Origin: Coprobacillus cateniformis
GTDB taxonomy: Bacteria > Bacillota_I > Bacilli_A > Erysipelotrichales > Coprobacillaceae
Direction: 5' to 3'
NCBI RefSeq assembly: GCF_009767585.1
Contig: NZ_WSNW01000001.1
Location: forward strand, 708,342 to 732,341
DNA length: 24,000 bases
Under the pieces are notes generated by a model, which saw nothing but the letters and a program-made list of their open reading frames with translations, was not told the origin of the DNA and ran no database searches. This document shows, in pieces, positions 3,501-23,491 of the stretch (its first letter is position 1; the number at the start of each line of letters is the position of its first letter). A program made the position numbers and the translations under genes.

Positions 3501-3884
3501 TCATGTCAGTAGATCATTGTATTCATCATAGATATTTCTATCGAAAGTTCTGCTGAACTGTTTCAGTATTGTTAGACACATCCCCTGTTCAATTCCTTCC
3601 CATACTGCTTTCTTTCTAAAGTTATCAATTGATTCACATATATTGATTTGATCCTGTTCTTCCTTCTTGACTATCTTTAATAATTCTTCTCCCTTATCTA
3701 CCAATGATGCTAGAACATTTGCTGTTTCTCTTGACATCTTTTTTTCCTTTAAGCTTCTTATATCTCTCTTCTCCTTATAAAACATCTGTAGACCTACTAT
3801 TCTCGATTATCCTTATCTGTTAATAAACTTGCATTCAATTCTTTGATGCCTATAATATAAGTATTTTGGTCATTTACTTTCCTT
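3501..3884 (-). pseudogene. 5'-truncated, frameshifted copy of the C-terminal region of the adjacent Rpn-family gene; includes the 94-aa ORF at 3501-3785
   Basis: DNA at 3501-3884 aligns by eye with 4040-4400 of the full-length gene. An example block is ctcgattatccttatctgttaa[t/c]aaacttgcat[t/c]caattc. The 94-aa ORF (KEKKMSRETANVLASLVDKGEELLKIVKKEE...ICESIDNFRKKAVWEGIEQGMCL) parallels residues ~205-290 of the 328-aa protein. A 4-nt deletion near 3800 breaks the frame upstream, and the N-terminal nuclease domain is absent. Confidence 0.6.
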
Positions 3885-7317: not shown

Positions 7318-7332
7318 GACTTCAACTTTTTT
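7301..7332. terminator. Bidirectional rho-independent terminator; left boundary of the PTS/peptidase locus
   Basis: Perfect 11-bp stem AAAAGTTGAAG (7301-7311) / CTTCAACTTTT (7320-7330) with A/T runs on both sides. It overlaps the stop codons of the convergent CYTH (7315-7317) and YitT (7331-7333) genes. Confidence 0.75.
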
Positions 7333-8943: not shown

Positions 8944-8954
8944 GTCTTGACCTC

Positions 8955-10061
8955 CTATATGTTTGCAAGATAATAGATACCAAGAGCGTATATTTTTGCA
9001 TTTGTTATAATATCCTCAACTCTCATCCATTCATTTGGTTGATGACCAATTCCTTTTTGGCCAGGAAAACTAGGTCCAAAGGGAACAATATGAGGCATTA
9101 ATTTTGCATAAGTTCCGCCTGTTGTTGTCACAGGAGTCCCATCTTCATTGGTTATTCTTTCATATGCTTGTTGTAAACATTTCACCATTGGGCATTCTTT
9201 ATCAAAACGAACTGGTTGATAATGATGAACACAAGTCACTTGAAAATCTTTGGCTTTGTTTTGAATGGTTTGAATCATCTCTGTAAGAGAAACACTTGCT
9301 GGATAAGAAAAAGTCACTGAAAATATCATTTGATGATTTTCATGTTTCAATTGATAATTACGCATCTCATTCATTCCAAATTCCTCATCTTGGTAATCCA
9401 CACCTAATCTTTCACCATTAGGTTTTGCATTCATAAAATAAGTATTCACAAAAGCTAAGAATTCATCCAAATTCTTTTCATCAGTTGCAATTTCAATAAC
9501 TGCTCTCCCACGTTCGCCATAAACAACAGGATATTTACAATCAGGTGTCCATCCCATAACAGGTGGTTTTTCATAATGAAGATAGTATTCTAAATCCTCA
9601 AATCCTGATTCTTCGTCACAACCAAAAATAATACGAACTGGTTTCTTTAATTCTATCTGTAATAATTTTAACGCATATAAAGCATATAAACAACTTAATA
9701 TTGGTCCTTTATTATCTAAAATACCTCTTGAATATATAATGCCATTTTCTTCATAGCCACTAAAAGGTGGATGTTTCCATCCTTCACCCTCCTCAACAAC
9801 ATCTAAATGACCAATAACTCCTATATAATCTTCACCTTCGCCATACTGAGCCCAGCCAATATAATGATTTAAGTTTTTTGTTTGAAACCCTAATCTTTCA
9901 GCCAACTTCAAAGTCTCTTCTAAAGTTATAGCAATATCTTTCCCAAATGGTGCATCCTTTGAAGCTAAAGACTTTACACTTGGATAACGTACAATTGTTT
10001 TAATATCTTCAATCATCGCTAAAGAGATATCTTCAACCTGTTTAATAATTTTCTCTTCCAT
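8955..10061 (-). CDS. M20-family dipeptidase, PepV/Sapep-like with a shortened lid domain
   Basis: 368 aa with M20 metal-ligand and catalytic blocks: VIGHLDVVEEGEGWKHPPF, SRGILDNKGP, GCDEESGFEDLEYY, TGGTYA. The N-terminal half is collinear with PepV. There is no signal peptide. Confidence 0.85.
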   Translation of the reverse strand: MEEKIIKQVEDISLAMIEDIKTIVRYPSVKSLASKDAPFGKDIAITLEETLKLAERLGFQTKNLNHYIGWAQYGEGEDYIGVIGHLDVVEEGEGWKHPPFSGYEENGIIYSRGILDNKGPILSCLYALYALKLLQIELKKPVRIIFGCDEESGFEDLEYYLHYEKPPVMGWTPDCKYPVVYGERGRAVIEIATDEKNLDEFLAFVNTYFMNAKPNGERLGVDYQDEEFGMNEMRNYQLKHENHQMIFSVTFSYPASVSLTEMIQTIQNKAKDFQVTCVHHYQPVRFDKECPMVKCLQQAYERITNEDGTPVTTTGGTYAKLMPHIVPFGPSFPGQKGIGHQPNEWMRVEDIITNAKIYALGIYYLANI

Positions 10062-10062
10062 A

Positions 10063-11019
10063 TTATTTTTCTTCTAAGGGAGCCATTCTTGTTTTCATAT
10101 AGTTGTCTAACCATTCTTGACTTGCTTCTTCATGCTGGCATTTCCCATCAACACGCTTTGTTAAATAAACAATAGGTTTTTGTAAAGCTGTTGCGACTGC
10201 AAAAGAAAAGCCTTCAATATTGGTAGCAACGCCCCACTCTCCTTTATTATTCATAGCAATTAATGAAAGATCTCCAGCACTCCCTCTTCTTTCTATTAAT
10301 GTTTTTTCTAAATCATTAACTGCTTTTTCACAAGCTGCTTGGGGATGCATTCCTTCTTTCATTAAACGAACAATTTCATAAGAAATACACCCCTTCATTA
10401 AGTCTTCACCTAATCCTGTTGCACTTGCTCCACCAACATGAGAATCTACATAAAATCCAGAGCCAACAATTGGAGAATCTCCAACACGCCCTTTTTTCTT
10501 CATAAATAATCCACTTGTAGATGTTGCTGATGTCATCTTTCCATTCATATCTAAACAAACCATACCAACTGTATCATGTCCTGCATAAGGCTTAATTGTT
10601 TGATTTTGAACTTCTTTAACACGATTTTTATAATGAATCTTTGCACGTTTTGTAAGCATATTCTTTCTTTCAAAACCTTCTTGATGAGCAAATTTTTCTG
10701 CTCCTTCACCAACCAATAAACAATTCACTTTTTCTTTTGATAATCGTTTTGCAATAGAAACTGGATTAGCAAAGTCCTTAATAGCAGCAACTGCTCCAAT
10801 ATCAAAAGTATCTCCATCCATAAAAGCAGCATCTAATTCCACTTCCATATTTTCATTAGGAAGTCCACCATAACCTACTGACTTATAATATTCAAAATCC
10901 TCTACTGCCCTAATTGCAGTTTCAATTGCTGCTCCAGCATCACCATGATTTTCTAAAAGTTCACTTGCTTCACTAATACCTTCTACAGCCATACGCCAAG
11001 TTGCGATAATACCCCACAT
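10063..11019 (-). CDS. Ntn-hydrolase of the asparaginase_2 family, most similar to glycosylasparaginase (N4-(beta-N-acetylglucosaminyl)-L-asparaginase); isoaspartyl peptidase is the alternative
   Basis: The autoprocessing and nucleophile context GHDTVGMVCLD resembles the AGA-type HDTIGM motif. Also present are the N-terminal IATWRMA block and the C-terminal GDSPIVGSGFYVD and GASATGLGEDLM blocks. I chose the start at ATG 11019 (MWGIIATW...), with SD AAGGAGG 8 nt upstream; the ORF-track start at 11040 is TTG. There is no signal peptide. Confidence 0.75.
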   Translation of the reverse strand: MWGIIATWRMAVEGISEASELLENHGDAGAAIETAIRAVEDFEYYKSVGYGGLPNENMEVELDAAFMDGDTFDIGAVAAIKDFANPVSIAKRLSKEKVNCLLVGEGAEKFAHQEGFERKNMLTKRAKIHYKNRVKEVQNQTIKPYAGHDTVGMVCLDMNGKMTSATSTSGLFMKKKGRVGDSPIVGSGFYVDSHVGGASATGLGEDLMKGCISYEIVRLMKEGMHPQAACEKAVNDLEKTLIERRGSAGDLSLIAMNNKGEWGVATNIEGFSFAVATALQKPIVYLTKRVDGKCQHEEASQEWLDNYMKTRMAPLEEK

Positions 11020-11063
11020 GTTTTTAACCTCCTTTAACAAACAAAACTGAGAATATCCCAGTT

Positions 11064-11387
11064 TTATTTTTTTGCTTTCTTCATTTCTCTAATTGCTGTT
11101 TTTAATACTTTTTCACCATCCATCAAACCATAATCACTTGAATCAATGACTGTAATAGGTTTTCCGTTTTGACCATAACGATCAACTGTATCTTGTAATA
11201 AATATTTTACTTGAGGTCCCAATAAAATGCAATCAGGATTTTTTGATTCAATAATTTCTCCTAATGTTCCAATTGGAAAAGCCTTCACTTCAAATGGTAA
11301 ATTATGTGCATTAGCAACATCTTGCATATTTTGTGCCAACAAACTTGTTGACATCCCATTACTACAAAATAAATAAATTTTTTTCAT
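11064..11387 (-). CDS. PTS EIIB component, lactose/cellobiose family (paralogue 1)
   Basis: 107 aa. MKKIYLFCSNGMSTSLLA carries the phospho-Cys at residue 8, and LLGPQVKY is present. Size is typical. Confidence 0.9.
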   Translation of the reverse strand: MKKIYLFCSNGMSTSLLAQNMQDVANAHNLPFEVKAFPIGTLGEIIESKNPDCILLGPQVKYLLQDTVDRYGQNGKPITVIDSSDYGLMDGEKVLKTAIREMKKAKK

Positions 11388-11400
11388 TTCATTATTCCTC

Positions 11401-11730
11401 CTATAATATCTTTTTTTCTAGATCAAATATTCTCTGATAACAAACATTCATCTCTTGAGCAAAAACCTTAACCTGCTCTACTGACATGACTTGATCTTGT
11501 GCATGAATAAGTAAAAGATGATAATCATTTAAAATCCCATTCACTTCTTCTTGAGTCAATTGATTTTGAATACTATAAATTTGTGAAAACATATCATCAC
11601 CTTGACAAATCAACTCTTTTGCCTTTTCAAAATCATTATGTCTTGCTTCTTTAATCGACTTCATATAACTTGCTTTCGCTTCTCCAACAATTGAAATCAT
11701 TAAGAAACATTTCTTTACTGATTCATCCAT
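11401..11730 (-). CDS. PTS EIIA component, lactose/cellobiose family
   Basis: Helical EIIA-Lac pattern (ISIVGEAKASYMKSIKEARHNDFEKAKELI...) with the phospho-His context LLLIHAQDQVMS. I chose the start at ATG 11730 (MDESVKK); the GTG at 11739 lies too close to the predicted transcription start and has no SD. Confidence 0.85.
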   Translation of the reverse strand: MDESVKKCFLMISIVGEAKASYMKSIKEARHNDFEKAKELICQGDDMFSQIYSIQNQLTQEEVNGILNDYHLLLIHAQDQVMSVEQVKVFAQEMNVCYQRIFDLEKKIL

Positions 11731-11798
11731 TCCTTTCACCCCTTATCAAATCCATACTTATTGTACACTTGTTTACTGATTTCTTCTTTTAACTGTTT

Positions 11799-11815
11799 TT
11801 CCTAGCACTTAGGAA
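11799..11815. promoter_or_regulatory. Operator site A (TTCCTAGCACTTAGGAA) plus activator-dependent promoter of the EIIA-EIIB-amidase-M20-cutC-yitT operon
   Basis: 17-bp inverted repeat TTCCTA-N5-TAGGAA. Exactly 33 nt further on the minus strand is -10 TACAAT (11765-11760). There is no -35 match at the 17-nt position (AAGAAG). Confidence 0.7.
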
Positions 11816-11832
11816 AAATATACTTATGTTAT

Positions 11833-11849
11833 TTCCTAATGATTAGGAA
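11833..11849. promoter_or_regulatory. Operator site B (TTCCTAATGATTAGGAA) plus activator-dependent promoter of the M3-M19 operon
   Basis: 17-bp inverted repeat. 32 nt downstream on the plus strand is -10 TATACT (11882-11887), with no -35 match. The centre lies 34 bp from the centre of site A in the divergent intergenic region. Confidence 0.7.
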
Positions 11850-11911
11850 GAAGATTTCAATAATATAAATATCTTTTGATTTATACTTATATTTGCAAAG
11901 GAGGAATATCT

Positions 11912-13654
11912 ATGAATTATAAATGGTCATTAGATGCATTATATAAAGATTACCAAGATATCTCATATAGAAATGATTTTGCTATATATAAAAAATTACA
12001 TTCTGATATGTCTAATTATATACAAACAATGAGTACTAGTGAGTTATCAGTCAAAACAGGTTTACAACTATTAGAAAAAGAATATGACTATGGATATCGT
12101 TTAAAAATCTATTCCCAACTCATACAAGCAATAGATTCACAAAACAAAAAAGCTATATCTGAATTACAAAAAATCTCAACATTACAATCATCAAATATAC
12201 AACTCATAGAAACCATTCAAAGACATCTTGGTTCTCTCACAATTGATTCTAATGATGAAATGATTTTAGATTATCAATATTATTTACATAGATTAAGTGA
12301 AAAACAGAAATATACATTAGAAAATTCACAACAAGAAATTCTTTCAAGTCTTTATCCTTATACACTTAAATCTATGAGTGATATGTATTATCATTTAACA
12401 TCAACAGCACATCATACATGTTTAGGTAAAGATATGACATTAACACAAATTAAAAATCTCTGCCATCATCCAAAACAAAGCACAAGGAAAGAAGCATTTC
12501 TAAATGAATTAGCTTGTTATAAAACAATTGAACAGCCACTCTCATTTGCTCTTAACAATATCAAACAACAACAATTATATATATCAAAACAAGAAGGCTA
12601 CAAAGATCCTTTAGATAAAATGTTAAAAGAAAGTGATATGCAAATAGAAACATTGGAGGCTATGATGTCATCTGTTGAAGAGTATTTGCCAATTTTTCAA
12701 GAGTTTCTTTATACCAAAGCTAAGAAATTAGGTCATCACAATGGTATGCCATGGTATGATATTTATGCAACTATTGGTGAATGTCATTATTCCTTCACGA
12801 TTGAAGAATGTGAAAATATCATTTTACAATACTTTAAAGAAGTCGATAATTCTTTATATCAAATGACATTGCAGGCATTCGCAGAGAAATGGATTGACTA
12901 TCCAAGTACTAAAGGTAAACAAGGAGGAGCTTTTTGTGAAAATTTAGCTTGGATAAAACAAAGTCGACTAATGACTAATTACAATTCAACATTAAGTGAT
13001 GTTGTAACAGTGGCACATGAATTAGGTCATGCTTATCATGGTCATATGATTGAAAATCAACGCCCATTAAATCGTAAATACTGCATGCCACTTGCTGAAA
13101 CAGCTTCAATGTTTAATGAAAATATTATTTATAATTCATTCTATCAAAAAGCTGATCAAAATAACAAACCAATCATATTAGATATTCAACTTTCTGCATT
13201 ATGCCAAGTCATTTGTGATATTTATGCAAGATATACTTTTGAAAAATCAGTATTTAAGAATATTGAAAAAGGATTTTTATTTGCTGAAGATCTGAATCAA
13301 TTAATGCTGCAGGCTTTAAAAAAAGCTTTAGGTAAAGGTCTTGATGAGAAATACCTCCATCCTTATCGCTGGATTACAAAAGTGCATTATTATATTCCAG
13401 ATATAGCTTATTATAATTTTCCATATACATTTGGTGCCTTATTTTCAAGAGGTCTTTATACTATGTATCAAACAGATCAAACATTCTTTACAAATTATCA
13501 AAATCTTCTACGTGCATCAACAACACATAGTGTTGAAGAAACTGCTGCAATAGCTGGAATTGATTTAACAAAGAAAGATTTCTGGCAACAATCACTAGCC
13601 TCTATTCAACAACAAATGCAACAATTTTTAGATTTATTGGAGGAAACAAAATGA
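11912..13654 (+). CDS. M3B-family oligoendopeptidase (PepF-like)
   Basis: Zinc motif HELGHAYH with a downstream E (AETASMFNE), and the typical N-terminus WSLDALYKDY. I chose the start at ATG 11912 with SD AAAGGAGGA 7 nt upstream. The ORF-track TTG at 11876 lies upstream of the predicted -10. Confidence 0.85.
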   Translation: MNYKWSLDALYKDYQDISYRNDFAIYKKLHSDMSNYIQTMSTSELSVKTGLQLLEKEYDYGYRLKIYSQLIQAIDSQNKKAISELQKISTLQSSNIQLIETIQRHLGSLTIDSNDEMILDYQYYLHRLSEKQKYTLENSQQEILSSLYPYTLKSMSDMYYHLTSTAHHTCLGKDMTLTQIKNLCHHPKQSTRKEAFLNELACYKTIEQPLSFALNNIKQQQLYISKQEGYKDPLDKMLKESDMQIETLEAMMSSVEEYLPIFQEFLYTKAKKLGHHNGMPWYDIYATIGECHYSFTIEECENIILQYFKEVDNSLYQMTLQAFAEKWIDYPSTKGKQGGAFCENLAWIKQSRLMTNYNSTLSDVVTVAHELGHAYHGHMIENQRPLNRKYCMPLAETASMFNENIIYNSFYQKADQNNKPIILDIQLSALCQVICDIYARYTFEKSVFKNIEKGFLFAEDLNQLMLQALKKALGKGLDEKYLHPYRWITKVHYYIPDIAYYNFPYTFGALFSRGLYTMYQTDQTFFTNYQNLLRASTTHSVEETAAIAGIDLTKKDFWQQSLASIQQQMQQFLDLLEETK

Positions 13655-14559
13655 AAATCTGCAATCTCCATGATGATATTGGAACTGATATTTATGAGCA
13701 TCGATATGATGATCCTCAACGTTTAGATAATTATCATTATCCTAAAATGAAAGCTGGAGAAATAAAAATGACAGCTCTTGTTTGTTGTTTTACAGGACAA
13801 CAAACATATAAAGAAATGCAAGCACAAGTTCTTTATCTTGAACAACAAATTGAACAAAGTCTTTATTTTTCATATGATAATTCTAAAGATATACAATGTT
13901 TTATCGCATTAGAAGGCTTATGCGGTATCCAAAGTGATGTGACAAGGAAGATTCAATGGTTATATCAGCATCATGTAAGACTAGCTGCTTTATGTTGGAA
14001 TGATGATAATGCATTAGCATGCGGAGCAAAAGCTGGAAATAAACCTTTAACCGATTTAGGTAAAGAATGTATTATAGCAATGAATGATATCAATATGGCA
14101 ATTGATGTTTCACACTGCTGTGAATGGAACTTTTATGATATTGCCAGAATTTCTAACAAACCTATTGTTGCAACTCATAGTAATGTGAAAGGTCTTTTCA
14201 ATCATTATCGCCATTTAAGTGATCCTTGTTTAGAAGTCTTGTATTCTCAAAATGGGCTCATCGGGGCTATTCCAGTTCGCTGGTTTGTTACAAGAGATGA
14301 AACGAAACAAACTCTAGATGAATTCATAAATATCATCGATTATCTTAAAAACAAAGTAGGTATTAGACATATTGCTTTAGGATTTGATTTTATGGATTAT
14401 ATAGATGATGCTCCTTGTATGGTTGAAGGTTTAGAAAGTATTGCCAATGCACAAAATGTTGTCAAAAAATTATACGATAGAGGTTACAGTGAAAACGAGG
14501 TCAAAGCCATCTGCTTTGATAATGCTTATCACTATATATTACCTTATTTGAAATATTGA
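13651..14559 (+). CDS. M19-family (renal-type) dipeptidase
   Basis: 302 aa. The N-terminal metal-binding H-x-D (CNLHDDIG) and the block IDVSHCCEWNFYDIARISNKPIVATHSNVKGLFNHYRHLSD are collinear with the M19 DxSH...SHSN...H.RN..D pattern. ATGA overlap with the M3 gene stop (13651-13654). Confidence 0.85.
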   Translation: MKICNLHDDIGTDIYEHRYDDPQRLDNYHYPKMKAGEIKMTALVCCFTGQQTYKEMQAQVLYLEQQIEQSLYFSYDNSKDIQCFIALEGLCGIQSDVTRKIQWLYQHHVRLAALCWNDDNALACGAKAGNKPLTDLGKECIIAMNDINMAIDVSHCCEWNFYDIARISNKPIVATHSNVKGLFNHYRHLSDPCLEVLYSQNGLIGAIPVRWFVTRDETKQTLDEFINIIDYLKNKVGIRHIALGFDFMDYIDDAPCMVEGLESIANAQNVVKKLYDRGYSENEVKAICFDNAYHYILPYLKY

Positions 14560-14590
14560 AATGAGAACCTCCCTTTCTCATATAAAAAAG

Positions 14591-14655
14591 ACTGTCATGT
14601 GTTTATTATTTGAACATACAAATAATAAAGTTCACTTTAATGACAGTTTTTTTTA
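14591..14655 (+). terminator. Rho-independent terminator of the M3-M19 operon (long two-tier hairpin)
   Basis: Outer stem ACTGTCAT (14591-14598) / ATGACAGT (14640-14647). Inner perfect 11-bp stem TTTATTATTTG (14602-14612) / CAAATAATAAA (14619-14629). A run of 9 T follows (14647-14655). Confidence 0.6.
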
Positions 14656-15160
14656 TTAAAAATTTGGATGTGTCAGAAAATAGTTTCATTATACTTGCTT
14701 AAAACTAACAACACATAAGATCATAAATCATCATGAAACAAAAGAAGAGTTATAGTTGAAAACAGTGCGACTTACAAACAATAGAAATTATCTGGTAGAC
14801 AGATTGATAAAGATTTTAACATTATTTAAAGATTGAGACTATTGAAAGACTGAAGGAAATTTTAGTTTTAAAAGAGGAAGAAATGTTAAAGGAGATGATC
14901 GCTAACAGATTGCTTGAATGACATGAAGAAATAAAAAACACATTTATCAAGTTGCTGAAATGATTTATGCTAATGAAACACTATGAGCAACATATGCAAT
15001 ACAAAGATTTCAAGATGCTTTAAGAAAACTGTTTATAAATTGGCACATAAGCTCAATAAAAACAATGTGATAAACTCTTACTGCTTAGAACTTACTATTG
15101 CTTTTTAACAACTATCATTTTTATTCCATTCTATTATTTTTAACTAAGAATATTGCATGA

Positions 15161-15213
15161 AAACAAAAAAGTCATATAACTATTATGTTCAATAGTCTTA
15201 TGACTTCCTTTTT
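15161..15213 (-). terminator. Rho-independent terminator of the M42 operon (symmetrical, could act in both directions)
   Basis: Stem AAGTCATA (15169-15176) / TATGACTT (15199-15206) with an imperfect inner extension. It is flanked by an A-run at 15161-15170 (T-run on the minus strand) and by TTTTT at 15209-15213. Confidence 0.65.
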
Positions 15214-15241
15214 AATTATTATTTTACTCTTAACATTTAAT

Positions 15242-16333
15242 TTATCTAAATTGTTGATCCAACGCTCTATATTTATCCCAATCTAATCTGCGACACAATT
15301 CTGCAATGGCTTCAACAGTTTGAACATAATCTTTACGATGAATAATTAAACGATGAGAATGCATATAACGAGTTGGTATACTCAATGTCATACAAATGAT
15401 CCCATCATACGCTTTATGGATATTATCAGCATCTGTACCACCTACTGTCATCATATCATAATTGATATCTAAGTTTAAATCATGACAAATTGCTTCCATT
15501 TCTTTTAATAATGCTTTATGTCCAATAATTCCAGCATCCATAATGCTTAAAACAACACCTTTTCCAAGCTGAATTGTTCCTTGATCAGCTGGTGTATCCA
15601 TTGCAGTTGTGACATCTAATGCAATTGCAATATCAGGATGAATCAAATTGGCGGCTGTCCTCGCACCTCTTAAACCCACTTCTTCTTGTACTGTTCCTAC
15701 AGCATAGACGTCTGCTGTAATATCATCATTTTGAATACGTTCTAAAACTTCAATAGCAGCTGCTGCACATAAACGATCATCCCAAGCTTTTCCCATTAAA
15801 TAATTTGGATTATTCATCACTTCAAATTGTGTATCAGGAGTTATCATATCACCTATTTGAATACCTAAATCTAATACTTCTTGACGATTATCCACACCTA
15901 AATCAAGAAATAAATCAATTGGTTTCATAACCTTTTCTTTGACTTCCTTTGGTAAACCATGTGGAGCACTGCTCCCTACAACTCCATGATATCTCTTTCC
16001 AGTTGCTGTTGTCACATAAAGGGTTTGAGCAGGCAAAACATGACCCCACCAGCCTCCAACTGGCAACATATGTATAAATCCATTCTCATCAATATCTCTA
16101 ACCAAAAAACCAACTTCGTCCATATGACCTGCAATCATAATCTTTGGACCCAAATGTCCTTTCTTAAGACCAATAATCGAACCCAAATGATCATATGTAA
16201 TTTCATCACATATTGGTGCCATATATTTTTTCATAACTCGACTAACTTCTTTTTCACATCCTGATATGCCATGAGCTTCGCTCATTTCCCTAATTAAATC
16301 TAAATTGATATTTCCATAAGGTTCTTTAGCCAT
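15242..16333 (-). CDS. M42-family aminopeptidase (FrvX/CelM/YsdC-like), paralogue 2
   Basis: Motifs IAGHMDEVGFLV, KAWDDRLC and VQEEVGLRGARTAA. I chose the start at ATG 16333 (MAKEPYGNINLD...), with SD GAGG 8 nt upstream and lying 10 nt after the stop of the upstream gene. The ORF-track start at 16423 would create an 80-nt overlap. Confidence 0.85.
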   Translation of the reverse strand: MAKEPYGNINLDLIREMSEAHGISGCEKEVSRVMKKYMAPICDEITYDHLGSIIGLKKGHLGPKIMIAGHMDEVGFLVRDIDENGFIHMLPVGGWWGHVLPAQTLYVTTATGKRYHGVVGSSAPHGLPKEVKEKVMKPIDLFLDLGVDNRQEVLDLGIQIGDMITPDTQFEVMNNPNYLMGKAWDDRLCAAAAIEVLERIQNDDITADVYAVGTVQEEVGLRGARTAANLIHPDIAIALDVTTAMDTPADQGTIQLGKGVVLSIMDAGIIGHKALLKEMEAICHDLNLDINYDMMTVGGTDADNIHKAYDGIICMTLSIPTRYMHSHRLIIHRKDYVQTVEAIAELCRRLDWDKYRALDQQFR

Positions 16334-16343
16334 ATATTTACCT

Positions 16344-17396
16344 CTATCTATTTTCTTCTTTAAACATTTGAATTTTTGACTCATCAAGAGAAGTGAGAAT
16401 ATGAATGATTGCCTTTTTCGCATTCATATAGTCCCTTAAATCTATCATTGACTGACTTGTGTGACCACCTCTTGCACAAATACATGCACTTAGTGTTGGG
16501 CAACCAGAAAACAATTTATGTATCCATGCCGAATCGGTTTGACCCATATTATAGAAATATTGATAAGGAATATTATTTTTTTGACAAGTTTCTACAAGTT
16601 CATTTAAAAGAGCACGATTAGGCATCATTCCTTTATCATAATAACGAATCAATATACCTGCACCTAGTTTACCAATTTCATTATCTTTTCCCTGATAATC
16701 ATCTGCAAATGAACAATCCATAACAATACCCATATCTGGACGAATCAAGCCAGTTGCTGTTGTCGCTCCACGCATTCCCACTTCTTCTTGAACAGTGGCA
16801 CCTATATATAAATCATAATCCAATTCAACATCTTTTAAAGCTTCTAAAACCTCAACAGCCATAACACATCCATAACGATTATCCCATGCCTTAGAAAGAA
16901 TACGATTTTGGTTCAAAACTGTAAAAGGACCATCTAATACTGCACTATCACCAATACTCACCCCCATTGCTTCAACATCTTGTTTTGAAGTCGCTCCAAC
17001 ATCAATAAACATCTTTTTATCATCACACACTTCTACATCTTTTAATGAACAACCAATTGTTCCTGGCACTTCTTGTCCATCTTGTTTTAAAACACGAACA
17101 CGATGTGAGAGAAGAACTTGATTATCAATGCTCCCAATTTTTATAAATTTTAATAGGCCATTTGTAGTGACTTCAGTAATCATTAAACCCACTTCATCCA
17201 TATGGCCACATACCATGACCTTTTTTGCATTTTCTTTTTGACTTTTTTTAATTGCAAATAAACTTCCTAAATGATCATAAATCAGTTCATCACAATAGGG
17301 TTGTAAATATGATTTTAATAATTCAGAGACATATCTTTCATCTCCAGCAATTCCAATGACTTGTGTTAATTCTTCCATTAATTTTAAAGTATCCAT
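16344..17396 (-). CDS. M42-family aminopeptidase (FrvX/CelM/YsdC-like), paralogue 1
   Basis: Motifs VCGHMDEVGLMI, KAWDNRYGC and VQEEVGMRGATTAT. I chose the start at ATG 17396 (MDTLKLMEEL...), because the ATG at 17414 would fall at or upstream of the predicted transcription start of the promoter at 17419-17424. Confidence 0.85.
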   Translation of the reverse strand: MDTLKLMEELTQVIGIAGDERYVSELLKSYLQPYCDELIYDHLGSLFAIKKSQKENAKKVMVCGHMDEVGLMITEVTTNGLLKFIKIGSIDNQVLLSHRVRVLKQDGQEVPGTIGCSLKDVEVCDDKKMFIDVGATSKQDVEAMGVSIGDSAVLDGPFTVLNQNRILSKAWDNRYGCVMAVEVLEALKDVELDYDLYIGATVQEEVGMRGATTATGLIRPDMGIVMDCSFADDYQGKDNEIGKLGAGILIRYYDKGMMPNRALLNELVETCQKNNIPYQYFYNMGQTDSAWIHKLFSGCPTLSACICARGGHTSQSMIDLRDYMNAKKAIIHILTSLDESKIQMFKEENR

Positions 17397-17457
17397 AACA
17401 TACCTACCTTTCATTATTATTATAATTCTTAACAGACAATAACTTATGTAAGTTTCT

Positions 17458-17473
17458 TTCCTATTAAACGGAA
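17458..17473. promoter_or_regulatory. Operator site F (degenerate: TTCC-N8-GGAA, TTCCTATTAAACGGAA) plus promoter of the M42 pair
   Basis: One half-site is perfect (TTCCTA) and the other is weakened (ACGGAA). Exactly 33 nt downstream on the minus strand is TATAAT (17424-17419), the same geometry as the five strong sites. There is no -35 match. Confidence 0.5.
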
Positions 17474-17504
17474 AAAAAGAACATGCCTTTAATAAACATG
17501 TTCT
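17471..17504 (-). terminator. Possible (attenuating) terminator between the GrdB-like gene and the M42 genes
   Basis: Stem AGAACATG (17478-17485) / CATGTTCT (17497-17504) with an 11-nt loop. On the minus strand it is followed by TTTTTTT (17477-17471). The 5' arm lies inside the end of the upstream CDS. Confidence 0.5.
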
Positions 17505-18010
17505 TTAACAAACGCCATTACATCTTCTTTATTGACTAACATTTTTGTAAATGTAATCATATTTGCTAATGCTTGATTTAAACCTGTCCCACCTTTTTTA
17601 GGCATCTTAAGAATATAGACTTTATCTTTATAATCAGAAATAGCTTTTTCACATTCTTTTGACATCATAGCAAATACTGGTATATCTGTATGTTCATGAA
17701 TCGTTAAAGCTGTTTTTGCTGCCATGACTCCATATTCAGCATAATTAAAACATGGTCCACAAATGACTACATCTGGCTGAATTTTCTTAGCCATAGCTGC
17801 AAACTTTTTAGAAACAGTTTCTGGGTCTTTCATAAATGTTCCATTTCCACAATATAAAGTTCCAACAATCTTACCACCAGCATCCTTTAACTGTTTTTCA
17901 AACATATTGCATGAACCAATTGGCATCATCTTTCCACCTAATGCTAAATCAGCACTCTCTTTTCCTCCTAACCCAGACTGTGTTTGATCAAATATCATCA
18001 ATACTTTCAT
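17489..18010 (-). CDS. Stand-alone protein resembling the N-terminal domain of GrdB-family (glycine/sarcosine/betaine reductase component B) proteins; function unknown
   Basis: 173-aa ORF with a strong SD (AAGGAG, 7 nt upstream). MKVLMIFDQTQSGLGGKESAD... and ...YCGNGTF....IQPDVVICGPCFNYAEYGV are collinear, from my memory of GrdB N-termini, with VVHY.NQFF.GIGGEEKAD ... ICGD.YF ... PD..IAGPAFNAGRYG. It lacks the selenocysteine-containing C-terminal two-thirds. The CDS call is solid; the family call is tentative. Confidence 0.5.
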   Translation of the reverse strand: MKVLMIFDQTQSGLGGKESADLALGGKMMPIGSCNMFEKQLKDAGGKIVGTLYCGNGTFMKDPETVSKKFAAMAKKIQPDVVICGPCFNYAEYGVMAAKTALTIHEHTDIPVFAMMSKECEKAISDYKDKVYILKMPKKGGTGLNQALANMITFTKMLVNKEDVMAFVKEHVY

Positions 18011-18341
18011 TTTTCTTCTCCTTATTTTCCTGCATTGCCAGAAGTGCTTTCTTTAAGACTTTGTCACTGTTTAACATTCCATAATCTTCTTGTGAAATCA
18101 TTATAATAGGAATATTTAAATGACTGAATCTTTGTCTTGTTTCTTCTAACAAATACTTAACTTGAGGTCCTAGAAGAATAGCATCTGGTAGTGCCCATTT
18201 TTCAATAACACTTGGTAATTTACCATGAGGATAAGCCACAATTTCAACTGGTAATTTGTGTTTATTGGCACAATCCTGCATCATACTTGCCAATATACTT
18301 GTGGACATTCCCTGACTACATAACAAATATATCTTCTTCAT
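17988..18341 (-). CDS. PTS EIIB component, lactose/cellobiose family (paralogue 2, with a charged C-terminal extension)
   Basis: 117 aa. MKKIYLLCSQGMSTSILA carries the phospho-Cys at residue 8, and LLGPQVKYLL is present. By eye it is roughly half identical to paralogue 1. Its last 23 nt overlap the start of the GrdB-like gene. Confidence 0.9.
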   Translation of the reverse strand: MKKIYLLCSQGMSTSILASMMQDCANKHKLPVEIVAYPHGKLPSVIEKWALPDAILLGPQVKYLLEETRQRFSHLNIPIIMISQEDYGMLNSDKVLKKALLAMQENKEKKNESIDDI

Positions 18342-18397
18342 AGTTCCTTGTTCTCCTTTATTATAGTTAAAATATTATTTTTATCTTTCAAATTCTT

Positions 18398-18413
18398 TTC
18401 CTAATATTAGGAA
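18398..18413. promoter_or_regulatory. Operator site C (TTCCTAATATTAGGAA, perfect 16-bp palindrome) plus promoter of the EIIB2/GrdB-like operon
   Basis: Inverted repeat TTCCTA-N4-TAGGAA. 32 nt downstream on the minus strand is TATAAT (18365-18360). There is no -35 at the 17-nt spacing. Caveat: the predicted leader is only about 11 nt. Confidence 0.65.
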
Positions 18414-18558
18414 AAAATTCTTAATTGTTTCTTACTCATATTAACATAGACACAGCTACCCATTGGAAGAGTCACCATTGGTATCGTATATCTAAAACCC
18501 ATATTACATATAACCTTACTCCTTTTTTAATCATTATAACATAATTTATTATCAGAAG

Positions 18559-18588
18559 ACCAAAAAGCTATAGCCAAACTATAGCTTT
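18559..18588 (-). terminator. Rho-independent terminator of the EIIC gene
   Basis: Perfect 10-bp stem AAAGCTATAG (18564-18573) / CTATAGCTTT (18579-18588) with a 5-nt loop. On the minus strand it is followed by TTTTTGG. It lies 6 nt after the EIIC stop. Confidence 0.7.
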
Positions 18589-18593
18589 CATTT

Positions 18594-19958
18594 TTATAAA
18601 TCCGAAAGATCTAAATCATCAAATGAGATATCTTCTTCAACATCATCTTCGGCTTCTAATTCTTCTTTGAGATATTGTTTATCTAGAGCTTTAATAAATG
18701 GGAAATATACAACACACCCTAAAGCCAATAACAAGAATTGCCATAATGCTGCAATTGGATCTCCTGTTGATAGCCATCCAGAAAAACCAATTGGTGTTGT
18801 CCATGGTAAATTAACTCCAGTTGTTTTTGGTATAATATGCCAAAGTGTTGCACAGTAAGATAATATTAAGTTCATCATTGGTACTAAAATAAATGGAATG
18901 GCAATAATTGGATTTAATACAACTGGTAATCCAAAGATAATTGGTTCATTAATTCCAAAAATACCTGGAACAATACTTAATCTTCCTAATTGTTTAATAC
19001 GTTGAGATTTACAGAACCCTAACATAACAATGACTAATGATAAAGTTGAACCACCACCACCAAAATTGCAGAAGAAATTAGAGAAAGGATTTGTAAAAAT
19101 ATGAGGCAATGCCTGTCCTGCTTCAAATGCAACCTGCTGCTCAATAGTTAAAACATTTCCAATAAAGTATACAGAGTTAGCAACTGCTGGTCCATTAATT
19201 CCAAAGAACCATAAGAAAGTACATGCAAATGAGTAAATAGCATTTGCTGCTAAAGTATCTCCCATACCTTTCAATGGTGTTTGTAAAATCTCTAACACAA
19301 ATTGATGAGCTGTACCAAATGAAGTCATTCCAAATAGAATACGTACCAAGAAGAAGATTGTCATAACGAATGCACTTGGTACTAATGCTGCAAATGAATC
19401 ACAGACAGCTGGTGGTACACCTTTAGGCATCTTAATTGTCCAACCCTTTTTATAAACCCATGTAAAGATTAAAACTGAACTAAGAGCACACACAAGTCCC
19501 ATAAAGATACCATCTGCTCCGATATATCTAAATGCTAAACCATTAATACCATTTTCAGCAGCATCACTGCCTTCTAGTAAACTAACACCTGGAATAGATG
19601 CTATACTTGTGTTTGTTAGAATAACAAAAGCAACCAATGACACGACTGCCCCCTGAATTTTATCACCTTTTAATTCTCTAGCGAATGCATAACCAGTACC
19701 TACACAAGTCAGTAGCCCAGTCATATTAAAAGTTGCCCTTGATACATTTGTGAACCATGTTCCCCAGTTTTCCCCAAATACACTTGCCATCATTTCATCC
19801 CAGCCTGGTATTGGGAAGTTAGCGATTAACAAGAAGATTGACCCAACAATCAATAATGGAGTTGTGATTAAGAATCCATCACGGATAGCGATTAATACTC
19901 TATTTTTACCAAGTTTATCAGCAATTGGCATTAATACGCTTTCTAGTTTGTTAAACAT
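18594..19958 (-). CDS. PTS EIIC component, lactose/cellobiose (Lac) family
   Basis: 454-aa polytopic membrane protein with the EIIC-Lac pattern (MPIADKLGKNRVLIAIRDGF..., FGINGP, INEPIIFGLPVVLNP). SD AAAGGAGGA is present. It has an unusual acidic C-terminal tail. Confidence 0.9.
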   Translation of the reverse strand: MFNKLESVLMPIADKLGKNRVLIAIRDGFLITTPLLIVGSIFLLIANFPIPGWDEMMASVFGENWGTWFTNVSRATFNMTGLLTCVGTGYAFARELKGDKIQGAVVSLVAFVILTNTSIASIPGVSLLEGSDAAENGINGLAFRYIGADGIFMGLVCALSSVLIFTWVYKKGWTIKMPKGVPPAVCDSFAALVPSAFVMTIFFLVRILFGMTSFGTAHQFVLEILQTPLKGMGDTLAANAIYSFACTFLWFFGINGPAVANSVYFIGNVLTIEQQVAFEAGQALPHIFTNPFSNFFCNFGGGGSTLSLVIVMLGFCKSQRIKQLGRLSIVPGIFGINEPIIFGLPVVLNPIIAIPFILVPMMNLILSYCATLWHIIPKTTGVNLPWTTPIGFSGWLSTGDPIAALWQFLLLALGCVVYFPFIKALDKQYLKEELEAEDDVEEDISFDDLDLSDL

Positions 19959-20026
19959 AAATTTTCCTCCTTTTAAAATCTATCTCCATTATAGCAACTA
20001 AATTTATCTAATTTTTCTAAAAAATC

Positions 20027-20043
20027 TTCCTAGTATATAGGAA
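20027..20043. promoter_or_regulatory. Operator site D (TTCCTAGTATATAGGAA) plus promoter of the EIIC gene
   Basis: 17-bp inverted repeat. 33 nt downstream on the minus strand is extended -10 TGcTATAAT (hexamer 19993-19988), with no -35 match. It lies 4 nt after the RDD gene stop, with no terminator in between. Confidence 0.7.
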
Positions 20044-20047
20044 ATAT

Positions 20048-20650
20048 TTAATCTTCTACAACAATTGATAATTTTGTTCCTGCAATATAATCATGGAACA
20101 TTTTACGTTTTGGTGAAGCACAAGCCCAAAGCATTGATAGGGCTGTTATGATACCAAAAACATAAACATATATATCATTTAAGTCTTTCCCTATGAAAAT
20201 ATTAATCATTTGATGAAAATAACTTGAACTTGCTGCAATATATCCTTCAACTATCATGACACCAATTGCCTCACGTTTCAAAAGAGTTATAAAATCAACA
20301 TAACTATCATCCTCTTTCACAACTTGAATGTTCATAATCTTTTTAGCAAAAGTTTGACCAGGATAAATTTTTAAAGGTACAAAAATAAAATAAGCCAAAT
20401 AGATAATAATTGCCATAATTCCTGCTAATATGCTATATGGATAAGGAAGTTCTGTAATATTTTGTGTAATTTCTAGGTCTTGAAAAAAGATAGAATATAT
20501 TAGCACAACTGGAATACCAGCCAACATACTGGCAGCATACCAATCAATAATATATGCAAACAGTCTTTTAAAGTTATTTACAGTGGTTGGTTGAGATTGA
20601 ATCATTTTTTTATTCTGGAAAGCAGCATAATTGATTTTTGGTTTTTTCAT
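20048..20650 (-). CDS. RDD-family integral membrane protein
   Basis: 200 aa with the RDD-domain N-terminal pattern (FKRLFAYIIDWYAASMLAGIPVVL) and 3-4 predicted TM helices. Its ATG overlaps the regulator stop (TAATG at 20648-20652). Confidence 0.75.
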   Translation of the reverse strand: MKKPKINYAAFQNKKMIQSQPTTVNNFKRLFAYIIDWYAASMLAGIPVVLIYSIFFQDLEITQNITELPYPYSILAGIMAIIIYLAYFIFVPLKIYPGQTFAKKIMNIQVVKEDDSYVDFITLLKREAIGVMIVEGYIAASSSYFHQMINIFIGKDLNDIYVYVFGIITALSMLWACASPKRKMFHDYIAGTKLSIVVED

Positions 20651-22566
20651 TATTTTTTCTCCTTTGTGATTTTACAAATAAACTCATTATAGTCTCTAGA
20701 TTCTAGTAAATCAGAAAAATGACCAGCCTCTCCAATCGCCTGACTTAACCAATCAAAAAACATCTTTAAAACTTCATGATCACCTTCATTGATAGCTAAT
20801 AAGATAACCAATTTAACTTTAAATGAACCCCAATCAATCGGATTCTTTAACAGTGCTACTGATACTGTAGGTGTATTGACATAATCTCCAAAAGAATGTG
20901 GTGTAGCAAATGAATAAGCAAAAGATGTGGGTGACATTTCTTCTCTTTTTAAAACACCTTTTTTAAAGAATTTATTCACAACACCTCCGCTATACAATTC
21001 ATCACATAAATATTCAATAACTTCTTGTGAACTTCGTTTATCTAAATCAACATAGAAGTATTGTGGATTGATAAGTTGTGATATTTTTTGATTAAAGACT
21101 ATTTGAAATCTTTTCTTCTCTAATTTAGACAAAGCTTGGAAGATGATTGATTCGTCCTCATTGTTAATAAACATACTCACTTGAATAGTGAGAATATCTA
21201 ATTCATGTGAAAGTGGTGTCATAGTAATTAATAAATCTGGATTTAAAGCAAGAACTTTTGCCTCTTCAAACAATGGTAATGTCTCAACAATTTCTAATCG
21301 CTCACTAAAAGTTGATTCTACTTTTTTTTGCCCTAATGTTGAAAAATTTTGATCATAAGGAATGATCATCACAACCTTAAATTTACTATTTCTATTTAGT
21401 CGTTCATAAGCAGCACCAAAATGCAAAGCAATGAAACCCATTTCTGATTCATTAATATGAATATTCAAACACTCTTCTAAAGCATTTCCAACTGATACCC
21501 CCATTTCAAAAACAAGAGGATAATTCCTTTTAATATCATGAATAAAGAGATTATCAGCATTTATATTTTGTTGATATCTCTCAATCAATCCTTGTAAATG
21601 CATTTTTAATCCTGCCATAAAATCTTCATCTTCATGAAATTGAACATGCAATTTCTTTTCAATTGGTGTAACAACATTTTGTAGTAATTCATCTATATCA
21701 ATATGATTCTCATCAATAAAAAGATGTTTAGGTTGATATTGTCCACTCTTATTAGAAAATAATAATGCCAATAAACATATTTCATCTTCATGTATCTCAA
21801 TAGGAATGAATTCCATAAGTCTTTCAAAATACTCACTTGCAATTTTATATTCAATACTTTGTAACAAAGCCTGATTTTTTCTTTCTGTTGTATAAAACTG
21901 ACAGTTTAACATTCTTTCGATACTTATACCAACATGTAATATTAACATTGGAAACATTGTTTCTTTAATAACATATTGATGATTTTTAAGTACATTTACA
22001 AGAATATCCGTTGCTTTAACTAAATCAAAGTCTTTATAAAACATTGCCAATTTATTTAAGTTTAAAAAATTCCCTTGTGTTTCATTTGATAGCAGTTCTT
22101 TATATAATTTTCTCTTCTCTATTTCATCGCCCTTTAAATATATATAATTCTTAGAACGAACTAATTTCAGATGAGAATATTTTTCCAATGTTTTACGTAC
22201 TTTCTTGATATCATTTTCAATTGAATACCCACTTACATATATATCTTCTTGTAAGAAAGTGAGATTAATACCTTCTTCATGAATTAATAACTGTTGAATT
22301 AAATATGTACATCTTTGAGCTGGAGTTTGAGGAATATCTTTTGGTGTTTCAATATATATCTGATTATATTTATCTATATTTAAGAAGTAGCCCATACGAA
22401 TATTCGATTGAATGAGTTCCTCTTGGAAATTTTTATTTATTGCATCAATATCTGAACGAATTGTACGATCTGAGACTCCTAGCAGTCTAGCAAGTTCTTT
22501 ACCTGTAATCCATTCTTTATTTTCATAAAATATAGAGATAATCCTCTCTTGTCTTTTATTGAGCAT
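20650..22566 (-). CDS. PRD-domain transcriptional activator of the MtlR/LicR/ManR type (HTH - Mga-like HTH - PRD1 - PRD2 - EIIB-like - EIIA(Mtl/Fru)-like)
   Basis: N-terminal wHTH (ITGKELARLLGVSDRTIRSDIDAIN). PRD His contexts: LILHVGISIERM, LKMHLQGLIERY, FIALHFGAAYER. C-terminal EIIA-2-type His context FATPHSFG. There is no AAA+/Walker motif, so it is not sigma-54 or LevR-type. I chose the start at ATG 22566 (MLNKRQERI...), with SD GAGAGGGA. The ORF-track TTG at 22590 abuts the -10 hexamer. Confidence 0.85.
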   Translation of the reverse strand: MLNKRQERIISIFYENKEWITGKELARLLGVSDRTIRSDIDAINKNFQEELIQSNIRMGYFLNIDKYNQIYIETPKDIPQTPAQRCTYLIQQLLIHEEGINLTFLQEDIYVSGYSIENDIKKVRKTLEKYSHLKLVRSKNYIYLKGDEIEKRKLYKELLSNETQGNFLNLNKLAMFYKDFDLVKATDILVNVLKNHQYVIKETMFPMLILHVGISIERMLNCQFYTTERKNQALLQSIEYKIASEYFERLMEFIPIEIHEDEICLLALLFSNKSGQYQPKHLFIDENHIDIDELLQNVVTPIEKKLHVQFHEDEDFMAGLKMHLQGLIERYQQNINADNLFIHDIKRNYPLVFEMGVSVGNALEECLNIHINESEMGFIALHFGAAYERLNRNSKFKVVMIIPYDQNFSTLGQKKVESTFSERLEIVETLPLFEEAKVLALNPDLLITMTPLSHELDILTIQVSMFINNEDESIIFQALSKLEKKRFQIVFNQKISQLINPQYFYVDLDKRSSQEVIEYLCDELYSGGVVNKFFKKGVLKREEMSPTSFAYSFATPHSFGDYVNTPTVSVALLKNPIDWGSFKVKLVILLAINEGDHEVLKMFFDWLSQAIGEAGHFSDLLESRDYNEFICKITKEKK

Positions 22567-22629
22567 ACAATATCCCTCTCTTTCTTGCAAATTATAACAT
22601 TATTTTTTCTGATACTCTTATATCTTTAT

Positions 22630-22646
22630 TTCCTAAGTATTAGGAA
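22630..22646. promoter_or_regulatory. Operator site E (TTCCTAAGTATTAGGAA) plus promoter of the regulator-RDD operon (autoregulation)
   Basis: 17-bp inverted repeat. 33 nt downstream on the minus strand is extended -10 TGtTATAAT (hexamer 22596-22591), with no -35 match. Confidence 0.7.
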
Positions 22647-22680
22647 GTGATTAACACTTTCATCATTTCATTTCCTAAAT

Positions 22681-23270: not shown

Positions 23271-23276
23271 GACAAT

Positions 23277-23491
23277 AAAGACAAAGAAGGAATGGAGTAA
23301 TTTATGTAACATGTTGAAAGAGAACTTGTGGTTGGTGCAAACAAGTCATGAACATAAATGAATTGGGATTCTGGAGTTATAGATGGCATCAGTCATTTAT
23401 CGTTAATCGCGTTAAGATGAAAGTGCATATCAAATGATATGAATAAAGGTGGTACCGCGTTCAAACGTCCTTTTTGTAAGGATGTTTTTTT
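23277..23491 (+). promoter_or_regulatory. T-box riboswitch leader (tRNA-Trp-responsive transcription attenuator)
   Basis: Stem I elements are present: the AGAGA (GA/K-turn) motif at ~23319-23323 and GGTGCAA at 23334-23340. The canonical T-box sequence AAAGGTGGTACCGCG lies at 23445-23459. It is followed by the terminator hairpin ACGTCCTT/AAGGATGT plus TTTTTTT (23464-23491). Candidate UGG specifier triplets are at 23364-23366 and at 23372-23374; the latter is followed by A. The downstream gene is trpS. Confidence 0.8.

Follow-up and report, generated by a model that had tools for sequence, protein, structure and literature searches.

Which protein reads a palindrome that recurs in front of several transcription units in one locus of Coprobacillus cateniformis, and what gene set does it hold together? 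The locus lies in a 24,000-nucleotide stretch of contig NZ_WSNW01000001.1 (assembly GCF_009767585.1, forward-strand positions 708,342 to 732,341), which was analysed as a whole and is referred to below as the window. The palindrome, or box, follows the pattern TTCCTA-N4/5-TAGGAA over 16-17 bp. In the reading that we prefer, with a probability of about 80%, the box is the predicted DNA site of a 638-aa LicR/MtlR-type PRD activator encoded in the same locus, which would bind there, stimulate transcription from the putative starts downstream and, by positive autoregulation, also raise the expression of its own gene.

Boxes and promoters in the window

The initial annotation had reported five perfect sites and one degenerate site, and a pattern search of the window recovered exactly the five perfect ones at the same coordinates. 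The five perfect boxes, all of them intergenic, compare with 0.02 expected at the chance level given by dinucleotide-preserving shuffles (n = 100), none of which (0/100) gave five. Site F (TTCCTATTAAACGGAA, two mismatches) is the sole other intergenic TTCC-N8/9-GGAA in the window, and a relaxed scan of the whole window with up to two mismatches yielded no further intergenic copy besides it, the remaining near-matches lying inside genes. The earlier statement that no other full copy occurs outside the cluster (11.8-22.6 kb) is upheld, although the region outside spans about 13 kb and not about 9 kb. The boxes are listed here without a strand; L001 and L002 denote the loci of the two closest genomes.

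11799-11815: box A, TTCCTAGCACTTAGGAA; serves the minus-strand EIIA operon and lies 17 nt from box B, with which it forms a divergent pair that is also present in L001
11833-11849: box B, TTCCTAATGATTAGGAA; serves the plus-strand M3/M19 promoter
17458-17473: degenerate box F, TTCCGTTTAATAGGAA in gene direction; its promoter-proximal half is perfect
18398-18413: box C, TTCCTAATATTAGGAA, with an N4 spacer; serves the EIIB promoter
20027-20043: box D, TTCCTAGTATATAGGAA; serves the EIIC promoter
22630-22646: box E, TTCCTAAGTATTAGGAA; serves the regulator's own promoter on the minus strand, with box and -10 kept in L001 and L002

Taken alone, box F does not reach significance. What speaks for it is the exact geometry, together with conservation in both of the closest genomes (identical in L001 and TTCCTACTATAAGGAA in L002) and the perfect boxes that precede orthologous M42 peptidase genes in other genomes.

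Read toward the downstream gene, boxes A to F are followed after 33, 32, 32, 33, 33 and 33 nt, respectively, by a -10 hexamer that matches TATAAT in four cases and differs from it at A and B. The hexamers at 17-nt spacing from the -10 (AAGAAG, AATAAT, AAAGAT, AAAAAT, AAGAGT and ATAAGT from A to F) are poor -35 matches. These gaps and both sets of hexamers reproduce exactly those reported before. Moreover, a sigma-70 consensus scan of the window with a -35 element at 16-18 nt placed none of the six promoters among the 60 best of 90 matches. The description of these promoters as lacking -35 boxes holds for all six at canonical spacing but is incomplete, since in five of them a TTNNNN hexamer stands at offsets 7-12 after the box and is separated from the -10 by a 20-21 nt spacer; at the same place promoter E reads ATATAA, which does not match. 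TGn extended -10 motifs are found at D (TGC) and E (TGT), and a catabolite-responsive element (cre), the site of CcpA, is absent from all six promoters. The promoter elements, named after their boxes, are as follows.

11760-11765, minus strand: -10 of P_A, TACAAT, 33 nt from box A
11787-11792, minus strand: -35-like TTAAAA of P_A, 21-nt spacer
11856-11861, plus strand: -35-like TTCAAT of P_B, 20-nt spacer
11882-11887, plus strand: -10 of P_B, TATACT, 32 nt from box B
17419-17424, minus strand: -10 of P_F, TATAAT, 33 nt from box F
17446-17451, minus strand: -35-like TTACAT of P_F, 21-nt spacer
18360-18365, minus strand: -10 of P_C, TATAAT, 32 nt from box C
18386-18391, minus strand: -35-like TTGAAA of P_C, 20-nt spacer; TTTGAAA is kept in L001 and L002
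19988-19993, minus strand: -10 of P_D, TATAAT with the TGC extended -10, 33 nt from box D
20015-20020, minus strand: -35-like TTAGAA of P_D, 6 nt past box D, 21-nt spacer; cTTTTTAGAAAAAT is kept in L001 and L002
22591-22596, minus strand: -10 of P_E, TATAAT preceded by TGT, 33 nt from box E; TGTTATAAT is unchanged in L001 and L002

Distribution and geometry of the box across genomes

The comparative set comprises 80 genomic loci with a homologue of the regulator (88-40% identity), which were fetched via an alignment of 18 homologues. With up to one mismatch allowed, the box was identified in 77 of the 80 loci; the three exceptions comprise one locus with a two-mismatch copy, one with an N6-spacer copy and one with only a 3-kb contig. 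The box-carrying lineages include Erysipelotrichales, Clostridium, Lachnospiraceae (up to 58% GC), Butyricicoccus, Peribacillus, Sporosarcina and a Streptococcus, and the box thus extends to genomes of 50-58% GC, where composition would not predict an AT-rich palindrome. Its TTCC/GGAA core is invariant.

The geometry of the promoters is equally constrained. The window and the 80 loci together contain 169 perfect boxes, for which a -10-like hexamer occurs at a gap of 32 or 33 nt on 163 box sides, compared with about five box sides for any other gap between 10 and 59 nt. Of 14 inspected perfect boxes without a strong -10, most precede EIIC genes and show, at this distance too, TGn together with a weak -10; an extended -10 recurs at EIIC promoters across the family. 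As a general feature of the regulator's own promoter the extended -10 was rejected (3 of 36). In four classes of box length and gap, which cover about 160 promoters from about 80 species, the distance from the dyad centre to the first -10 base is 40-41.5 bp, which puts the centre at about -53. When the class of 17-mers with a 33-nt gap is aligned on the -10, the canonical -35 position shows no conservation and the positions from -39 to -37 read T-T-A with frequencies of 0.84, 0.88 and 0.70; in the other classes the TTN element keeps its distance of 6-7 nt downstream of the box. This element is present at 35 of 42 EIIA promoters, 19 of 22 MupG-like promoters and all 10 M42 promoters, and is mostly missing at regulator promoters. 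Comparison with the orthologous promoters of L001 and L002 shows divergent flanks around a conserved box, TTN element, -10 and ribosome-binding site. A fixed 32-33 nt spacing without a -35 at 17 nt has the look of an activator-dependent promoter. The initial annotation had suggested such dependence from a dyad centre upstream of the -35 position (near -54), and the comparison of about 160 promoters supports it.

Could these promoters do without help, with the PRD regulator binding the box as a repressor or roadblock? Their near-consensus -10 hexamers, two of which are extended, mean that they could fire unaided. We consider this reading quite unlikely, however, because the box lies wholly upstream of the core promoter and never overlaps the -10 or the start site, and because strict helical phasing, kept here within 40-41.5 bp over some 160 promoters, is typical of activation. 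Moreover, MtlR, LicR, ManR and CelR, the characterised DNA-binding PRD regulators of the same architecture, are activators (PMC3217849, PMC4157138, PMC10864463).

Duplication did occur in the locus, where the two EIIB genes and the two M42 genes are paralogues (D1 and D2), and the boxes might accordingly be regarded as relics of duplicated promoter segments, or as a small repeat family, with no regulatory role. Such an origin is very improbable: apart from box, TTN element and -10 the six regions show no similarity, the internal spacer of the palindrome is free to vary, and the same three elements recur in unrelated genomes before non-homologous genes.

The arrangement of boxes between divergent genes is informative as well. 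Of the boxes in the 80 loci, 13 are flanked on either side by a -10 at the right distance, and some of these lie between divergent genes, as would fit a symmetric dimer. For example, a single box between the divergent regulator and YitT genes appears to serve both in L015 (9893) and L017 (9895); at other places each divergent promoter has a box of its own, the two boxes being 17-19 nt apart, as with A and B in the window.

An extra TTCCTA half-site was observed at 22672-22677, 25 nt past box E as seen from the regulator gene, right after the terminator of the upstream gene. At the matching place ATTAGGAAA is kept in L001 and L002 while the flanks diverge. This half-site may be an auxiliary site, or the remnant of a second box that belonged to a divergent YitT promoter, such as is found in other genomes.

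Since the 80 genome loci had been picked via the regulator, metagenome contigs were scanned for the composite element box-N32/33-TATAAT in a regulator-blind manner; 93 matches in 80 loci were examined, and the first downstream open reading frame (ORF) was classed. It encodes a homologue of a regulon protein in 71 of the 93 cases (EIIA 22, regulator 20, YitT 6, glycosylasparaginase-like 6, M3 5, M42 5, EIIB 3, EIIC 2 and MupG-like 2), whereas 14 matches are followed by no ORF or a contig end and 8 by other genes. Thus, the composite element is specific to this gene set. The positive autoregulation implied by a site before the regulator gene, as previously noted, gains comparative support from the 36 box-promoters with a correctly spaced -10 that precede this gene in the 80 genome loci and from the 20 metagenome matches.

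Three composite matches on freshwater/environmental contigs (L111, L112 and L147) precede a 155-156-aa protein that is unlike the regulon panel. They could be chance matches or point to an unrecognised regulon member.

The regulator and the proposed switch

The 638-aa regulator comprises, according to Pfam, HTH_11 (residues 13-68), HTH_Mga, Mga (92-166), PRD in two stretches and PTS_EIIA_2 (506-638), the last named after the phosphotransferase system (PTS); it has no AAA+ or CAT domain. It is identical to the 638-aa protein P0001, and shares 88% identity with its homologue from Candidatus Stoquefichus massiliensis and 66% with that from Thomasclavelia spiroformis. The only histidines invariant in 18 homologues are 212 (PRD1), 324 and 383 (PRD2) and 558 (EIIA_2). 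A segment of about 100 residues before EIIA_2 has a size that fits an EIIB-like domain, with no Pfam match and no conserved cysteine in the 18 homologues. Among solved structures, there is no close relative bound to DNA.

Two other classes of PRD-containing or similar activators were considered for this protein and rejected. Proteins of the Mga/AtxA/MafR family are about 480-530 aa long and have no EIIA domain; membership in this family is ruled out by the EIIA_2 domain and by a score of 80 bits against the MafR/AcpB/EbpR model NF053736, below its cut-off of 130. A LevR-type, sigma-54-dependent mechanism is excluded because the protein has no AAA+ domain and the promoters carry TATAAT -10 hexamers.

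The assignment of the box to this regulator, already proposed in the initial annotation, remains a prediction and is favoured by three observations: the cluster has no second DNA-binding protein besides the regulator, the box co-occurs with the regulator in 77 of 80 loci, and both the helix-turn-helix (HTH) segment VSDRTIRSD of the homologues and the TTCC/GGAA core are invariant. The same invariance leaves room for another transcription factor, encoded elsewhere, that would bind the box while the PRD regulator acts otherwise, as no covariation ties the HTH to the box and PRD binding is a prediction from sequence. Such a factor is nevertheless unlikely. The cluster encodes no DNA-binding protein other than the regulator, the box tracks the regulator gene over distant lineages and gene orders and usually stands on the regulator's own promoter, and even the regulator-blind scan met a regulator homologue in 39 of its 80 loci, most of which are short.

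A different role is suggested by source annotations, which name the protein 'BglG family transcription antiterminator', so that the palindrome would be an RNA-level target resembling a ribonucleic antiterminator (RAT). We give this possibility next to no weight. Antitermination is excluded because the box lies upstream of the -10, and is hence not transcribed from these promoters, because the leaders, at about 15-35 nt, are too short to hold an antiterminator RNA element and contain no terminator between promoter and start codon, and because the protein carries HTH_11 and Mga and no CAT RNA-binding domain. Furthermore, its 638 aa compare with about 280 aa in BglG/LicT-type antiterminators, the arms of the palindrome are invariant and not covarying, and Rfam gives no match at the boxes.

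Under the preferred reading, with the PRD regulator as activator, a regulator dimer would dock on the dyad, centred 40-41.5 bp before the first -10 base, and would help RNA polymerase with the housekeeping sigma factor to use a good -10 together with the mis-spaced TTN(A)NN hexamer. Six units would be co-switched in this way: regulator-RDD, EIIC, EIIB-GrdB-like, M42-M42, M3-M19, and EIIA-EIIB-glycosylasparaginase-M20-CutC-YitT. The placement of the regulator-RDD unit under its own regulator would constitute the positive autoregulation. By analogy with MtlR, LicR and CelR, the PTS presumably sets the activity of the regulator by phosphorylating histidines in its PRDs and EIIA-like domain, with phosphorylation by HPr activating it and the cognate EII components inactivating it when substrate is lacking.

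Several points weigh against this model. Activator binding, activation and the transcription starts in this orthologue group are all deduced from sequence, and, as both the HTH and the box are invariant, protein-DNA covariation cannot be used and the link between them is one of co-occurrence. Classical activators are centred at -61.5 (class I) or -41.5 (class II), and a centre near -53 fits neither position. Some level of activator-independent transcription is likely, given the extended -10 at D and E and the six near-consensus -10 hexamers. The TTN element is ambiguous in its role and could be a contact for sigma region 4, a second contact for the regulator, or something else. Finally, around residues 262-275 PRD1 appears to be without its second phosphorylatable histidine, a residue that CelR and MtlR have conserved, and the phosphorylation logic may therefore differ from that of these two regulators.

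The nearest precedent for the proposed switch is MtlR of B. subtilis and Geobacillus, which activates from a palindrome-containing operator just upstream of the -35 and autoregulates its own gene (PMC3217849). The two systems share the architecture of HTH, Mga-like domain, two PRDs and EIIA-like domain, possibly with an EIIB-like domain before the last, as well as a palindrome-containing operator, a predicted one in the window, directly upstream of a housekeeping-sigma promoter (PmtlA and PmtlR in the case of MtlR). In agreement with an earlier remark on this locus, the motifs are unlike: the MtlR operator TTGTCACAGTCATGTGCCAA (PMC3217849), with the palindrome TTGTCACA-N4-TGTGCCAA, differs from the TTCCTA-N4/5-TAGGAA found here. 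In addition, the MtlR palindrome is centred about 51 bp from the start of the -10, compared with about 41 bp here, i.e., one helical turn closer in our promoters; the MtlR promoter has a normally spaced -35 (TTGTAT), whereas the -35-like element here is mis-spaced by 3-4 bp; and the PTS regulated by MtlR belongs to the mannitol/fructose family, whereas that of the window belongs to the lactose/cellobiose family.

LicR and CelR of S. mutans are activators with the same domain plan as the window regulator (PMC4157138, PMC10864463), and LicR and LicR-type CelR are PRD activators of lactose/cellobiose-family PTS operons that are controlled by histidine phosphorylation (PMC4157138, PMC3585215). The likeness to LicR/CelR of B. 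subtilis, S. mutans and S. pneumoniae thus extends to both domain plan and PTS family, the comparison being based on these features and on regulon genes and not on the operator. The regulon genes differ: LicR/CelR regulons include phospho-beta-glucosidases (licH, celA), of which the window regulon has none, and in their place the regulon here contains RDD, GrdB-like, glycosylasparaginase, M20, CutC and YitT proteins, with or without a MupG-like enzyme. In a protein search seeded with the Peribacillus homologue, B. subtilis LicR was not among the top 120 matches, all of which were clostridial/erysipelotrichal-type relatives.

With respect to promoter position, the closest parallel is MafR of E. 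faecalis, a member of the Mga family that protects positions -70 to -34 of the P10478 promoter and needs -64 to -58; in P10478 the -10 is near consensus, a TG motif is present and the spacer measures 22 nt (PMC10773906). Both the position and the over-long spacer match the box promoters, and the Mga/AtxA/MafR proteins likewise have two N-terminal HTH motifs followed by PRD-like domains. On the other hand, MafR sites share little sequence identity and are bound largely without sequence specificity, whereas the 12-nt core is invariant here and the regulator has a C-terminal EIIA domain in addition.

Genes behind the boxes and a possible substrate

The six promoters head six transcription units, with terminators between units where genes run on. 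EIIA, EIIB and EIIC of the lactose/cellobiose family are all present in the locus, each behind a box. The genes and terminators of these units are listed below.

7331-8206, minus strand: YitT, in the P_A operon (7331-11730; Pfam assignments)
8203-8943, minus strand: CutC, P_A operon
8955-10061, minus strand: M20 PepV-like dipeptidase, P_A operon
10063-11040, minus strand: glycosylasparaginase-like Ntn hydrolase, P_A operon
11064-11387, minus strand: EIIB, P_A operon
11401-11730, minus strand: EIIA, P_A operon
11912-13654, plus strand: M3-family oligoendopeptidase (NCBIfam M3_fam_3, E 1e-133), P_B unit (11912-14559)
13651-14559, plus strand: M19 dipeptidase (Pfam Peptidase_M19), P_B unit
15242-16333, minus strand: M42 aminopeptidase (Pfam), P_F unit (15242-17396)
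16344-17396, minus strand: M42 aminopeptidase (Pfam), P_F unit
17476-17506, minus strand: terminator after the GrdB-like gene, with a T-tail that extends into box F
17489-18010, minus strand: GrdB-like protein without selenocysteine (NCBIfam GrdB_like_no_Se, above cut-off), P_C unit (17489-18341)
17988-18341, minus strand: EIIB (Pfam), P_C unit
18564-18588, no strand given: hairpin terminator after EIIC, dividing the P_D and P_C units
18594-19958, minus strand: PTS EIIC of the lactose/cellobiose family (Pfam PTS_EIIC; NCBIfam lacE subfamily), behind P_D
20048-20650, minus strand: RDD-family membrane protein (Pfam), co-transcribed with the regulator from P_E; the regulator-RDD gene pair is kept in most loci
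20650-22566, minus strand: regulator gene, 638 aa (Pfam HTH_11, Mga, two PRD and EIIA_2), behind P_E

The starts of the M42 genes likely lie inside longer ORFs, judging from L002 and L012. The Asparaginase_2-family protein of the P_A operon has its best PDB matches among glycosylasparaginases (E 9e-61), compared with about 1e-33 for isoaspartyl peptidases.

Operon tracing in the 80 loci revealed a recurrent core of regulator-RDD, EIIA-EIIB-EIIC, the GrdB-like protein, the Asparaginase_2-family protein, M20, CutC and YitT, which is often joined by a MupG/DUF871-like (GH170-like) enzyme, and the gene string of the P_A operon itself recurs in many of these loci. The Erysipelotrichaceae add the M42-M42 and M3-M19 units, each with its own box. 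No GH1/GH4 6-phospho-beta-glucosidase was found among the 518 operon-traced genes of the window and the 80 loci, 38 of which are unclassified genes that were not family-scanned. A lactose/cellobiose-type PTS under predicted common control with a glycosylasparaginase and as many as seven peptidases, and with no beta-glucosidase, points to a substrate derived from host glycoproteins.

Two characterised gene clusters provide an analogy. In the alf-2 cluster of L. casei, the cytoplasmic glycosylasparaginase gene asnA2 is genetically linked to a PepV-type M20 gene (pepV) and serves the catabolism of N-glycan-core glyco-asparagine of the N-acetylglucosaminyl-asparagine (GlcNAc-Asn) type (PMC6960285), and in the chb cluster of L. 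paracasei a cellobiose-type PTS and the GH170/MupG-like enzyme ChbE handle N,N'-diacetylchitobiose (PMC12791066). The box regulon combines the gene sets of both clusters. However, the alf-2 and chb clusters involve an MFS permease, or GntR-type repressors with sites overlapping the -10, and they lack the PRD activator, the M42/M3/M19 peptidases and the TTCCTA box, all of which are present here. These analogies, together with the glycosylasparaginase match, suggest GlcNAc-Asn, chitobiosyl-Asn or short N-glycopeptides as the substrate; muropeptides are possibly an alternative. The sources label homologues of the window regulator 'lichenan operon transcriptional antiterminator', and since the regulon content suggests a glyco-asparagine or glycopeptide substrate, the 'lichenan/cellobiose' label is probably wrong for this group.

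As a tentative and rather speculative extension, the box may mark a widespread regulon of gut Firmicutes for an undescribed route, in which N-glycan-core glyco-amino acids or short glycopeptides would be imported and phosphorylated by the PTS, the peptidases (two M42, M3, M19 and M20) would free the asparagine, and the cytoplasmic glycosylasparaginase would split the sugar-Asn bond; many genomes would also contribute a MupG/GH170-like 6-phospho-glycosidase. The pairing of PTS genes with M42 peptidases, e.g., frvX of E. coli, has long been noted and is unexplained. If true, the glycopeptide route would give a physiological reason for this pairing and would be coupled to a promoter class in which the activator position is fixed and the spacer measures 20-21 nt, which turns the puzzle of PTS plus peptidases into a testable hypothesis. 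The E. coli frvABXR locus resembles the window in that PTS genes stand together with those for an M42 peptidase (FrvX) and for a regulator of similar N-terminus (MLN(K/E)RQ...GVS.RTI; NCBIfam match). It is cryptic in E. coli and differs in its fructose-type PTS and in a regulator that is only distantly related, and no TTCCTA-N-TAGGAA occurs upstream of frvA in E. coli K-12 (L081, 4088107-4092823).

The switch itself is of a known type, the predicted operator of a LicR/MtlR-type PRD activator with autoregulation, and the gene set under its control is the more novel part; the gene content may matter more than the operator. Out of the ordinary are the invariance of a 12-nt core across Firmicutes orders, the rigid position near -53 in combination with a mis-spaced -35-like element, and the gene set that the box joins. 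The promoter template (box, 6 nt, TTN(A)NN, 20-21 nt, TATAAT) can be used to annotate the regulon in hundreds of gut Firmicutes genomes, and the locus offers a clean system for studying the action of LicR/MtlR/Mga-type activators from about -53 where the promoter spacer is over-long.

Three further features of the window were observed. Between the convergent M3-M19 and M42 operons, the 680 bp at 14560-15241 contain no ORF longer than 42 aa; hairpins at both ends look like the terminators of the two operons, and the middle may be a decayed gene or an RNA gene. At the right window end, a T-box leader occupies 23275-23475 on the plus strand (Rfam RF00230, 121.8 bits), and the gene downstream of it reaches or nears the window edge. 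On the minus strand at 3501-3785 and 3895-4881, a YhgA/Transposase_31-like (Rpn-type) gene is followed by a 94-aa ORF that repeats its C-terminal part (KKMSRETANVLASLVDKGEELLKI...), a pair that looks like a partial duplication.

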